From an uncultured Bifidobacteriaceae bacterium (lineage in GTDB: Bacteria; Actinomycetota; Acidimicrobiia; IMCC26256; DASPTH01): a DNA stretch of 64,000 bases. The translations under genes were made by a program, and so were the position numbers. Under the pieces are notes generated by a model that worked only from the letters and a program-made list of their open reading frames with translations, had not been told where the DNA came from and did no database searches. Positions 7,097 through 10,420 of this stretch are shown piece by piece (within the stretch, counting starts at the first letter, position 1; every line of letters begins with the position of its first letter). The stretch spans positions 690 through 64,689 of the forward strand of contig CAZDJK010000048.1 in NCBI GenBank assembly GCA_964505725.1, in the 5' to 3' direction.

Positions 7097-7798
7097 CTAC
7101 ATCCGGTCGAGGAGCTCGGCCTTCTTCTGCTCGTACTCGTCGGGCGTGATACGGCCGGCATCGCGCAGGTTCGCCAGCTGCTCGATCTGGTCGGGAATGC
7201 TGACCGCGGGCGCCGCGGCCGCGGTGGCCGGGCCCGCTCCCGGGGCCGGGGCCTGCGCCGGCGGCGGGACCGAGGCCGCGGAGGCGGTCGGGGCGCTGAA
7301 GCCTCCCTGGGGCATGTTGCGCACCTCCATCTGGCGGTAGATCTCGTGCTGTACGCCGTCGGGGTGGCGGACGAAGTCGAAATGCGTCTGGCCGTCCTTG
7401 CCGGCGGACTCGATGTCGAGGTCCCCGGCACCGATGATGCGGTCGATCAGGCGCTGGTGGAAGTTGATGTTCATGACGCGCTCGAGCGGGATCTCGACGC
7501 CGCGCTTCGAGAGCACGCCCGTGCGGTAGATCACGCGACGGCTGGTGACGACGAAGTACGTCATCGTCCACTGGAAGTACTTGATCACCAGCCAACCCGC
7601 CCACGCGAGGACGACGGCGATCATGATCCACCACAACGCCGCGGTGACACCGGAGTTGTCGACGTGGTTCGCCATCAGGATGAACACGATCGCGAGCGGG
7701 ATACCGGTGAGGATGTTGCGCGAGAAGTACCACCAGTGCGGGCGCAGATCGAGCGCGACCGTCTCTCCGTCCTGGATCAGGTTGGTCGGGTACGCCAT
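7097..7798 (-). CDS. bPH_2 (PH) domain membrane protein with C-terminal SHOCT domain
   Basis: Two TM segments; VTSRRVIYRTGVLSKRGVEIPLERV; C-terminal LANLRDAGRITPDEYEQKKAELL. Confidence 0.85.
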   Translation of the reverse strand: MAYPTNLIQDGETVALDLRPHWWYFSRNILTGIPLAIVFILMANHVDNSGVTAALWWIMIAVVLAWAGWLVIKYFQWTMTYFVVTSRRVIYRTGVLSKRGVEIPLERVMNINFHQRLIDRIIGAGDLDIESAGKDGQTHFDFVRHPDGVQHEIYRQMEVRNMPQGGFSAPTASAASVPPPAQAPAPGAGPATAAAAPAVSIPDQIEQLANLRDAGRITPDEYEQKKAELLDRM

Positions 7799-7829
7799 GC
7801 GGCGAGGATACGCGGATGCCCGAGTGGGC

Positions 7830-8262
7830 CGGTGTCTGCGCGCTCACGCCGATCGTGCGGCGACGTCGGGATCGTCCCGGGAAGTGCCCCTTGCTTTCGG
7901 GATCTCGCATCCGTACGATGCGGAGACCGGCGAACGCGAGCCTGGTGCCGGCGGCATGTCCCACCCGGGGCGGCAGCCAAAGACAGGTGCGCGGGATCCG
8001 GGACGGCGAACGAGCCGGGCGGGACCACCCCCGCCGGGAGCGGGAGCCGGAGGCCACGGTCGGTGCCCGACCCGGGGCGACCCGGGGGAGCAGCGCAGCC
8101 GGTGGCGCCGTCCTCCGGGCGGCGACGCCGAGCGGTGCTCCGAGGTGCCGGCGAGCCGAGCGATCGGCACGTGGTCGGGAAGGGCCCCGAGGAGCTCGGA
8201 GCTGCGACGCAGCGAAGACTACTCGGGGCCTTCCTGATTCCCGGCTGCCAGCGCTCACCGCG
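7830..8262 (-). ncRNA. Candidate Ms1-like structured RNA (boundaries approximate)
   Basis: ~530-nt gap between two leaderless divergent genes. Long-range complementarity 7875-7888/8166-8180, perfect stem 8183-8191/8222-8230, and motifs resembling Ms1 as recalled from memory. Confidence 0.45.
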
Positions 8263-8332
8263 CCGCCCGCGAACCGGCCTTCGACTGCGCATCCCGCATA
8301 GCCGTCGTACCCCTTCGGTATGTTTCGCCGCG

Positions 8333-10420
8333 ATGTCCGACGACCCGCTCCTGCGAGGCCTCGACCCCACCCAGCGGGAGGCGGTCACCAGCGGGGCGAA
8401 GCCGCTCGGCATCCTCGCCGGTGCCGGCTCCGGCAAGACCCGCGTGGTCACGCGGCGCATCGCCTGGCGGGCACGCGAGCGCTCGCTCGACGCGGGGCAC
8501 GTGCTCGCGGTCACCTTCACGCGCAAGGCCGCCGGCGAGCTGCGCGAGCGGCTCGCCCGTCTCGGCGTTTCGGGTCACGTCACCGCGGGGACCTTCCACG
8601 CGGTCGCGCTCGGACAGCTCCGCCAGCACGCGCGCGACACCGGCCGGGCGGCGCCCGTCGTGCTGGAGCGCAAGGCGCGGTTGCTCGTGCCGCTCCTCCC
8701 GGCTCGCGGACGGGACGCCGGGCTCGCGGCCGCCGAGGTCGCGTCGGAGATCGAGTGGGCGAAGGCACGTCTCGTCGCGCCTGGCGACTACGAGGCCGCG
8801 GTCACCCTGGCCGATCGCACCCCCCCGCGCCCGGCGGCCGAGGTCGCCTCCATCTACCGCGCCTACGAACGCGAGAAGCGCAAGCGTGGAGTGGTCGACT
8901 TCGACGACCTGATCCACCAGTGCGCGGACACGCTCGAGCGCGACCCCGCGTTCGGGGACGCGCAACGCTGGCGGTTCCGCCACCTCTTCGTCGACGAATT
9001 CCAGGACGCGAGCGCCGCCCAGTTCCGGTTGCTCCGCGCCTGGCTCGGCGACCGCGACGACCTGTGCGTCGTCGGCGACGGCGACCAGGCGGTGTACGGA
9101 TTCGCCGGCGCCGACCCCACCTATCTCACACGGTTCACGGCCGTCTTCCCCCGGGCCCGCTATCCCGACGTCGCCGTGGTGGCGCTGGGATGCAACTACC
9201 GCTCGTCGCCCCAGATCGTCGCGGCCGCGGGCGCGGTGCTCGGCGCGGGCGGACGGCACCGGCGGCCACCGCGGGCGTCGCGGCCCGACGGCCCCGAGCC
9301 GACGGTGACCGCCTATGAGTCCGACGACGCAGAGGCGCGCGGCGTCGCCACCGCGTTGCGGGCCGCGCACCAGCCGGGCACGCGATGGTCGCGCTCGGCC
9401 GTCCTGTACCGGGTCAACGCGCAGTCGGCGCTCCTCGAGGAGGCCCTGGCGCGAGCAGGGGTGCCGTTCCGCGTACGCGGAGGCCAGCGGTTCGTCGACC
9501 GCGCCGAGGTCAGGGTCGCGCTCGACACGCTCCGCGAGCTCGCGCGCGCGGCGCCGACACGGCCGTTCTCCGAGCACCTCACCGACCTCGCCGCCGAGCC
9601 CGAGGGGTCGGAGGAACGACGCGAGCACGTGGACGCGCTCGTCCGCCTGGGCCACGAGTACCTGGAAACCGAGGGCTCGGCAGGCGTACCGTCGGGCTCC
9701 GTCGACGGGTTCGTCGGCTTCCTCCATGCGACGTTGCGCGGAGAGGACGCCGACGCGTCCACCGGTGGCGACGCCGTCGAGCTCCTCACCTTCCATCGGG
9801 CCAAGGGCCTCGAGTTCGACACCGTGTTCGTCACCGGCGTCGAGCGGGGACTGGTTCCGATCTCGCACGCCCGGACCCCTGCCGCGCTCGACGAGGAGCA
9901 GCGCCTCCTGTACGTCGCGGTGAGCCGCGCCGAGCGCGCCCTCCACGTCAGCTGGGCGCGTCACCGCACCGTCGGCGCGCGGGTCGTCGGCCGGCGCCCG
10001 AGCCCGTGGCTCGCGCTGATCGAACGCGCGGTCGCGCCGCCCACGACCGAGGGGCCGGGCGACGCACGCGCTGCGATCGCCGACGCGCGCGACCGCGTCA
10101 CCCGCGCCGGCGGGCGCGCGGCGCGGGACCGCGTCGCGGTCGACGCGGCCGACGCCGGTCTGCTCGATGCGCTAGTCGAGTGGAGACGGAAGCTGTCGCG
10201 CGCCGCCAACGTCCCGGCCTACGTGATCTTCGCCAACAGCACGCTCGCCGAGATCGCCTCCGCGCGCCCGAGCAGCCACCGGGCGCTGCTCGCGGTCAAC
10301 GGTGTCGGCCCGGTCAAGGCGGAACGCTACGGCGACGACGTCCTCGGGATCGTCGCCTCGTCGCCCACGCCGCCGGCCGCCCCGAGGGCGGGATCCCGGG
10401 GCATCACGGGCGGCGGTTGA
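8333..10420 (+). CDS. uvrD2: ATP-dependent DNA helicase UvrD2 with HRDC domain
   Basis: LAGAGSGKT, VDEFQD, NYRS, TFHRAKGLEF and RLLYVAVSRA motifs; HRDC (WRRKLSRAANVPAYVIF). TATGTT lies 8 nt before ATG 8333. Confidence 0.93.
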   Translation: MSDDPLLRGLDPTQREAVTSGAKPLGILAGAGSGKTRVVTRRIAWRARERSLDAGHVLAVTFTRKAAGELRERLARLGVSGHVTAGTFHAVALGQLRQHARDTGRAAPVVLERKARLLVPLLPARGRDAGLAAAEVASEIEWAKARLVAPGDYEAAVTLADRTPPRPAAEVASIYRAYEREKRKRGVVDFDDLIHQCADTLERDPAFGDAQRWRFRHLFVDEFQDASAAQFRLLRAWLGDRDDLCVVGDGDQAVYGFAGADPTYLTRFTAVFPRARYPDVAVVALGCNYRSSPQIVAAAGAVLGAGGRHRRPPRASRPDGPEPTVTAYESDDAEARGVATALRAAHQPGTRWSRSAVLYRVNAQSALLEEALARAGVPFRVRGGQRFVDRAEVRVALDTLRELARAAPTRPFSEHLTDLAAEPEGSEERREHVDALVRLGHEYLETEGSAGVPSGSVDGFVGFLHATLRGEDADASTGGDAVELLTFHRAKGLEFDTVFVTGVERGLVPISHARTPAALDEEQRLLYVAVSRAERALHVSWARHRTVGARVVGRRPSPWLALIERAVAPPTTEGPGDARAAIADARDRVTRAGGRAARDRVAVDAADAGLLDALVEWRRKLSRAANVPAYVIFANSTLAEIASARPSSHRALLAVNGVGPVKAERYGDDVLGIVASSPTPPAAPRAGSRGITGGG

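Follow-up and report, generated by a model that had tools for sequence, protein, structure and literature searches.

A stand-alone gene for an abundant structured RNA is proposed in the gap upstream of uvrD2 in an Acidimicrobiia-type genome

The locus and its proposed RNA gene

The DNA analysed here, referred to below as the window, is a stretch of 64,000 nucleotides (nt) from an uncultured bacterium placed in the Acidimicrobiia (assembly GCA_964505725.1, contig CAZDJK010000048.1, positions 690 to 64,689). Within it, two divergent genes are separated by a gap of 534 nt (7799-8332): on the minus strand a gene for a membrane protein with bPH_2 and SHOCT domains (7097-7798), and on the plus strand uvrD2, encoding a helicase with UvrD and HRDC domains (8333-10420), both recognised by their Pfam domains. 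We propose, with good confidence, that the gap holds a stand-alone plus-strand gene for a structured non-coding RNA of ~310 nt, which has its own conserved sigma-A-type promoter, ends at a 3' hairpin, is expressed at a very high level, belongs to a family outside Rfam 15 and has no detectable homology to the actinobacterial RNA Ms1. An earlier interpretation made from the letters of the DNA (the sequence-only reading) had placed an unannotated structured non-coding RNA here, which is borne out by the missing coding signal, the fold z-scores, the covariation and the transcripts described below; it had also taken this RNA for a divergent homologue of Ms1, to which we come after the evidence for the gene itself.

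G+C content by codon position is flat over 7799-8332 and phased in both flanking genes, whose third-position values (GC3) exceed 0.9, and no open reading frame (ORF) of the gap has a Pfam match; we therefore consider the gap to be non-coding. These two results, together with the insertions and deletions of any length found in relatives, led us to reject a protein-coding interpretation, and they agree with the earlier remark that no ORF in the gap looks like a protein.

The promoter that we assign to the RNA gene occupies 7891-7919 on the plus strand, with a -35 box TTGCTT (7891-7896), a 17-nt spacer and a -10 box TACGAT (7914-7919), and coincides with conserved alignment columns. In the aligned relatives an A/T-rich AAATTC block is followed by CTTGAC(G/C) or TTGCAA, 17 nt and TAnnnT, and the promoter stands at a consistent distance in 61 of the 62 hairpin-bearing loci tested. 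The sequence-only reading, which had seen no clear promoter, has to be corrected on this point and also on length, which it had put at ~450 nt: the transcript that we predict is of ~311 nt and runs on the plus strand from ~7926 to 8236. Its 5' end would lie ~7 nt past the -10 box, with ..CCGG, and its 3' end is taken from contigs that carry a poly(A) tail. In metatranscriptome contigs aligned to the window the tail comes after position 8235+2, and the tailed contigs of the window and of a relative's locus (L037) place the RNA 3' ends and poly(A) tails 7-9 nt past CUCGGGG. As for a possible action of the 3' hairpin as an intrinsic terminator, U-tracts follow it in three other loci (L128, L138 and L083), and the tail in the window is U-poor. 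In five loci from other high-G+C lineages, namely these three, L092 and L108, the -10 boxes read CAnnnT and a block farther up, CTGCGGACAACCCTGTG, is conserved; in L128, L138 and L083 an inverted repeat, TGTGCACGAACGTGTGCA, lies farther upstream and may be an operator.

The promoter-to-hairpin unit is covered by contigs from soil metatranscriptomes. Expression was taken as the depth of these contigs, a rough measure that sums many related species, and by this measure the conserved parts of the window's RNA reach up to ~4e3 in run X20, 3e3 in X27 and 5e4-8e5 in X26, with contigs covering only 7941-8199 and 8178-8235, nothing at 8240-8350, and depths of 0-40 on the flanking genes. A fuller picture comes from L037, to which contigs of at least 92-93% identity map in six runs from five independent studies. 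Coverage there is confined to ~2618-2929, beginning in the bin that holds the predicted RNA start (2624) and extending about as far as the end of the hairpin (2909-2917). Its depth is about 1e6 in X26, 4e4 in X32, 8e3 in X20, 9e2 in X29, 2.5e2 in X37 and 50 in X41, compared to 0 on the intergenic flanks and at most 11 on uvrD2. In soil metatranscriptomes the RNA is several orders of magnitude more abundant than its neighbour genes. In one contig from X20 the RNA is joined, at L037:2793, with a 3' segment like that of RNase P RNA (..CAGAACCCGGCTTATAG); this contig most likely is a library or assembly chimera of two very abundant RNAs.

Structure of the RNA

The plus strand of the gap folds more stably than its shuffles (z = -3.98), and the segment 7926-8240 more so (z = -5.39). 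The consensus folds predicted for three subgroups separately, and that of the minimal family member of 145 nt, are all chains of local hairpins. The body of the RNA is modular, with predicted total lengths of ~145-350 nt across the family, and the covariation among relatives that the sequence-only reading had asked to be checked was found in two of its elements, H2 and H4.

The 5' domain, H1 (7927-8001), is drawn from the alignments, in which CCGG at 7927-7930 can pair with CCGG at 7998-8001. These closing pairs are tentative, as RNAalifold favours an alternative local stem, 7927-7932/7946-7951. The apex of H1 varies in length among relatives and shrinks to a CCGGC-GUGA-GCCGG hairpin in the smallest ones; the short members of the family are L009, L010, L112, L161, L184 and L193. 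Next comes H2 (8004-8049), supported by covariation, with an outer stem of CGGC (8004-8007) and GCCG (8046-8049) and an apical stem of CGGG (8020-8023) and CCCG (8030-8033). Its outer pair appears as C-G eight times, U-A seven times and U-G once, and the inner pairs show double changes too. The apical loop is ACCACC (GGGACCACCCC, 8021-8031), and GGGACCACCC is unchanged in all 20 of 20 close relatives. H3 (8071-8086), seen in the subgroup consensus fold, is a 6-bp hairpin with a GNRA loop (CCCGGG-GCGA-CCCGGG); in relatives its pairs vary between GC, GU and CG, and its loop is GCAA, GCGA or GUGA.

Between H3 and H4 lies a G+C-rich insert (~8090-8176), recognised from gap columns of the alignment and missing or different in most relatives. 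It is specific to the closest relatives of the window, and the metatranscriptome contig of one relative joins 8033 directly to 8178, skipping 8034-8177 (144 nt). The smallest member, L193, with its 145 nt, consists only of H1 as a GNRA hairpin, H2, H3 and H4.

H4 (8177-8235) is the signature of the family and the site of 3'-end formation, defined by covariation, by a covariance model and by the RNA 3' ends. It is built of a stem P1, a stem P2 (GCCCCGAG/CUCGGGGC), a short helix with one bulged base, a purine-rich 3x3 internal loop (GGA/GAA) and a stem P3 (GCUGC/GCAGC) that carries a variable loop. Among 76 distinct sequences no change is seen in P2 or in GACUAC, and GACUACUCGGGG is invariant too, while P1 and P3 show free covariation and 88.3% of the cells are paired. 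Shuffled alignments give a covariation score of 0.140, and none of 500 came up to the observed 0.289, which falls to at most 0.11 when the pairing partners are slid. The perfect 9-bp stem that had been noted at 8183-8191/8222-8230 is indeed present and forms the invariant core of this hairpin. A kink-turn, defined by a bulge of three nucleotides ahead of invariant tandem G.A and A.G pairs, was considered for the internal loop and rejected: column 47, which would have to supply the A2b nucleotide, covaries as the Watson-Crick partner of column 21 (U-A in 41 sequences, C-G in 18, U-G in 4), and this switch between U-A and C-G fixes the register, in which the helix continues past a single bulged base and leads into the 3x3 purine loop. 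The H4 covariance model, R1, finds a single copy in the whole 64-kb window, at 8176-8237, scoring 78.1 bits on the plus strand and 27.8 bits on the minus strand. Another pairing proposed earlier, a long-range one between 7875-7888 and 8166-8180, is there in the letters, but this pairing is not conserved, and the 5' arm of it precedes the -35 box and so falls outside the transcript.

Conservation and linkage to uvrD2

Conservation was assessed in 80 species-representative loci around relatives of uvrD2, all of the Acidimicrobiia type. In 59 of the 80, blastn or nhmmer detects a core of ~60-70 nt (window 8177-8245) ahead of uvrD2, with 80-92% identity, and the hairpin is found there in 64 of the 80 when a regular expression and the covariance model are added; the core is kept even where UvrD2 is only ~50% identical. 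Closer relatives can be aligned over ~7853-8245, while 7799-7850 and 8236-8332 are not conserved, the uvrD2 promoter excepted. By an exact-pattern scan, the family hairpin occurs in at least 120 metagenome contigs, and in most of those listed it is followed, 90-280 nt farther on, by the start of uvrD2 on the same strand. The RNA gene is widespread in soil Acidimicrobiia. As for the window itself, it is high in G+C, its DNA word search matches are in wetland metagenomes, and the closest relatives of its UvrD2, at no more than 72% identity, are from metagenome-assembled genomes (MAGs) labelled Acidimicrobiia or uncultured Actinomycetota. One contig, L033, bears the title 'MAG: Bifidobacterium breve' and carries an Acidimicrobiia-like uvrD2 (55% identity) together with the 3' hairpin of the RNA (62 bits); the label of this bin is probably wrong.

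Given this arrangement, one has to ask if the RNA might be a long 5' leader of uvrD2, a riboswitch or attenuator with the hairpin as its regulated terminator. In most genomes the RNA is on the strand of uvrD2 and directly upstream of it, and the linkage kept at ~50% UvrD2 identity would suit such a role. However, uvrD2 has a conserved leaderless promoter of its own between the hairpin and the start codon, outside the RNA: in the window, GTCGTAC-N8-TATGTT at 8303-8324 on the plus strand, 8 nt before the ATG at 8333, and in the relatives (loci L001-L077) TGTCGTAC-N8-TAnnnT, the box standing 5-9 nt upstream of the start in 66 of 67 loci and nearly always 6-7 nt. There is also no RNA coverage between the hairpin and uvrD2, despite depths of 1e2-1e6 on the RNA. 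Furthermore, six lineages (L039, L090, L110, L159, L166 and L180) carry the entire RNA gene with its promoter in the opposite orientation, divergent from uvrD2 yet still adjacent to it, and in about ten of the contigs listed it is beside other, unrelated genes, such as the GGDEF/EAL gene that lies downstream of it in L128 and L138. The separate uvrD2 promoter, the inverted and unlinked copies and the missing read-through coverage thus argue for an independent gene, and we consider the leader explanation very unlikely. That the linkage to uvrD2 outlasts the inversion of the RNA gene in six lineages is an observation in its own right.

The gene on the other side of the gap looks leaderless as well, to judge from a -10-like TATCCT (7805-7810, minus strand) that stands 6 nt before its ATG (7798), and from its relatives, in which TAnnnT lies 5-9 nt upstream of the bPH_2/SHOCT start in 50 of 56 loci, nearly always at 6-8 nt. 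The earlier statement that neither flanking gene needs the gap as an untranslated region therefore stands, as the leaderless promoters of both are real and conserved. The promoter motif of uvrD2, moreover, may resemble the actinobacterial RecA-NDp/PafBC motif of the DNA-damage response; if this likeness holds, PafBC-type control of uvrD2 in Acidimicrobiia would be suggested.

Strand of the transcript and points against the proposal

The plus strand is favoured by the promoter, by the counts of G-U and A-C combinations among the core pairs, by the poly(A) tails, by the U-tracts in other lineages and by the fold z-scores. We also considered a transcript of the minus strand, which would carry the hairpin at its 5' end. 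In runs X32 and X37 the adapter junctions have read 1 on the plus strand, and if these libraries were stranded by the dUTP method, this would mean a minus-strand RNA. The junctions of X41, where read 2 is the plus-strand read, point the opposite way. To the right of the hairpin there is no conserved minus-strand promoter from which such an RNA could start; the minus-strand reading would turn many pairs into A-C mismatches (as read on the plus strand, the core pairs include 63 G-U and only 8 A-C); the poly(A) tails and U-tracts are at the plus-strand end, contrary to what a minus-strand RNA would have; and the fold of the gap on that strand has a z-score of only -2.11. A minus-strand transcript is, in our judgement, highly improbable.

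Several points nonetheless weigh against the picture of a stand-alone plus-strand RNA gene drawn above. The assignment of the strand is indirect, and the adapter junctions just described are mixed. The 5' end is placed at a predicted position. The promoter of the window was missed by a generic consensus scan, having only 7 of 12 matches to the E. coli consensus, and the same scan lists no terminator; the tail that follows the hairpin in the window, CCUUCCUGAUUCC, is U-poor. Contig depth is the rough measure described above, and a relative from subgroup 2, L021, showed only low, even coverage, in other runs, possibly owing to DNA present in runs of the 'metagenomic RNA-Seq' type. Nor does an independent RNA gene account for the lasting association with uvrD2. 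Finally, the function of the RNA and any protein partner, as considered below, are conjectural.

Comparison with Ms1 and other known RNAs

Ms1 binds the RNA polymerase (RNAP) core, is ~300 nt long, is made from a sigma-A-like promoter and has a long hairpin with a central bubble needed for binding (PMC4191392, PMC9130861). The sequence-only reading had proposed that the minus strand encodes a divergent Ms1 homologue into which a hairpin has been inserted, on the basis of three minus-strand blocks. These resemble CAGCCGGAAGAGAAGGC, CTCCCGACC and CCGAGCACCCACGCGG of M. smegmatis Ms1 and are accurate as strings when compared with the published M. smegmatis sequence; their similarity is at chance level, however, and on the strand that is not transcribed. 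Two of the three blocks fall in unconserved parts, one in the tail past 8236 and the third in the insert at ~8090-8176. When M. smegmatis Ms1 is aligned locally to the gap, the highest scores are 20 for the minus strand and 21 for the plus strand, no better than those of dinucleotide shuffles (21.3 +/- 2.6), and neither nhmmer nor sensitive blastn found anything when the published Ms1 sequences of M. smegmatis and S. coelicolor were compared with the gap and 169 RNAs of the family.

The Rfam Ms1 model, run on both strands, likewise gave no hit at the gathering score in the window and none even at E<=10 over 7500-8600. This miss is weak when taken on its own, because the model finds only Ms1 RNAs of close relatives of mycobacteria (PMC9130861). 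Synteny does not help the Ms1 proposal either: Ms1 is flanked on one side by a HAD-IB hydrolase gene ('inhibition of morphological differentiation') and on the other by a gene for an oxidoreductase, Fic or hexosaminidase (PMC9130861), but the neighbours here, and in most relatives too, are bPH_2/SHOCT and uvrD2. The predicted consensus folds lack the long hairpin with a central bubble, an argument to which, as one from prediction, we give moderate weight. What the RNA does have in common with Ms1 are generic traits: both are ~300 nt long, form a transcription unit of one gene that runs from a sigma-A-like promoter to a hairpin, and are very abundant (PMC4191392). We regard Ms1 homology as not detectable from sequence, and size, stand-alone organisation and abundance, though they match, are not specific to Ms1. 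Contradicted by sequence, strand and synteny, the minus-strand homologue is an explanation to which we give almost no credence.

No other Rfam 15 family accounts for the RNA. Setting aside one chance-level match, it had no hit, whether the window was taken at the gathering score or 7500-8600 at E<=10, and none in 32 related loci; across the 64-kb window no Rfam family reaches the gathering score anywhere, and no tRNA or tmRNA was found. The exception was F6 small RNA (20.8 bits, E = 0.7, minus strand), which was rejected as a generic hairpin likeness only. Resemblances to RNase P RNA, signal recognition particle RNA and Y RNA were leads only, without Rfam support. We found no description of the RNA in the literature searched.

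Seen as systems, Ms1 of Mycobacterium and its Streptomyces counterpart scr3559 are among the nearest in kind, being actinobacterial stand-alone RNAs of ~230-300 nt that start from a sigma-A-like promoter, close with a terminal hairpin and count among the most abundant RNAs apart from the ribosomal ones. The RNA described here differs from them by the lack of sequence or covariance-model similarity, by its flanking genes and by its modular chain of hairpins, and Ms1 in turn has no sequence-invariant 3' hairpin such as this family has. With 6S RNA (SsrS) it shares the character of an abundant housekeeping RNA, the linkage to a neighbourhood (6S with ygfA, here with uvrD2) and the frequent failure to be recognised by sequence. 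In contrast to 6S, however, it has no Rfam 6S match in the window and the 32 related loci, it ranges over 145-350 nt compared to ~180 nt, or a span of ~150-210 nt, for 6S, its 5' and 3' ends form no closing stem, and there is no central bubble. CoRP of Corynebacterium (PMC11077062), which we compared by description only, is again a lineage-restricted abundant RNA of an actinobacterial group in which neither 6S nor Ms1 is detected; unlike ours, it is 516 nt long, has tRNA genes on either side and is cut in two, and its binding to RNAP has been shown (PMC11077062). The raiA motif RNA (PMC10861870) is similar in being single-copy, ~200 nt long, rich in invariant nucleotides, very abundant, not cis-regulatory and present in Acidimicrobiia too. 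It differs in its motifs and helices, and no Rfam raiA match was obtained at the gathering score or at E<=5-10 in the window and the 32 related loci.

Possible functions

Our consideration of what this RNA does is conjectural; we lean towards an abundant housekeeping RNA that binds protein, perhaps a functional counterpart of 6S, Ms1 or CoRP. The compactly folded RNA is made from a strong and conserved promoter of housekeeping type, ends at H4 and accumulates massively, and it would act in trans as an abundant, stable housekeeping-type RNA. Within it, the invariant, purine-rich internal loop of H4 and the GACUAC strand might be where a conserved protein partner docks. Sequence is fixed in H4 alone, and there in P2, the purine loop and GACUAC, the other domains changing in size and sequence while keeping helices and GNRA loops, and for this reason H4 is probably a specific protein-docking site. 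H4 probably serves 3'-end formation and stability as well, and the GNRA hairpins suggest tertiary packing. Among roles in trans we would rank that of a protein-binding scaffold or sponge first, that of an RNAP-associated RNA second and that of a base-pairing regulator third.

That the RNA binds a protein other than RNAP is a reasonable guess, though one to which we would give less than an even chance. A base-pairing regulator is considerably harder to believe in and must be called unlikely; all remaining roles taken together are also unlikely, though not negligibly so, and they include a cis role on uvrD2 as a very minor part.

The role in association with RNAP deserves a closer look. The RNA might be a functional analogue, rather than a homologue, of 6S, Ms1 and CoRP, binding RNAP as core or holoenzyme and storing or sequestering it in slow-growing or dormant cells. 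Its extreme abundance in RNA from soil, where most cells grow slowly, fits such a role, as does its strong housekeeping-type promoter, and no match to 6S or Ms1 was obtained in the window or the 32 related loci, to which the search was limited. UvrD-family helicases work on RNA polymerase, and thus the presence of uvrD2 next door gives a further, weak hint in the same direction. It has been proposed that every species of bacteria possesses a single abundant RNA associated with RNAP and that such RNAs differ among actinobacterial groups and escape bioinformatic searches (PMC11077062), a proposal into which an analogue in Acidimicrobiia would fit. On the other hand, the RNA is a string of local hairpins and not a mimic of an open promoter, such as would offer the central bubble needed for Ms1 binding (PMC4191392), and the smallest member of the family is only 145 nt long. 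An RNAP-binding analogue is therefore a possibility that we take seriously while considering it rather unlikely.

Significance

The RNA represents, in our judgement, a new family within the known kind of abundant, stand-alone, structured bacterial RNAs, and it could be a new functional class too. As a bolder and quite tentative proposal, well short of a firm expectation, we suggest that Acidimicrobiia and some uncultured high-G+C lineages possess a new, extremely abundant class of structured RNA, which would be either the RNAP-associated 'dormancy' RNA of this clade, with an architecture unrelated to those of 6S, Ms1 and CoRP, or the RNA component of a new ribonucleoprotein whose hallmark is the invariant 3' hairpin.

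Acidimicrobiia are common in soils and waters and have hardly been studied at the RNA level. Reads of this RNA, currently unannotated, can dominate the non-ribosomal fraction of soil metatranscriptomes. The RNA would take its place beside raiA, OLE, ROOL and GOLLD, the few widespread RNAs of bacteria whose function is unknown, and it is a candidate answer to the question, raised in PMC11077062, of which RNA fills the role of 6S or Ms1 in actinobacterial groups where neither has been found.

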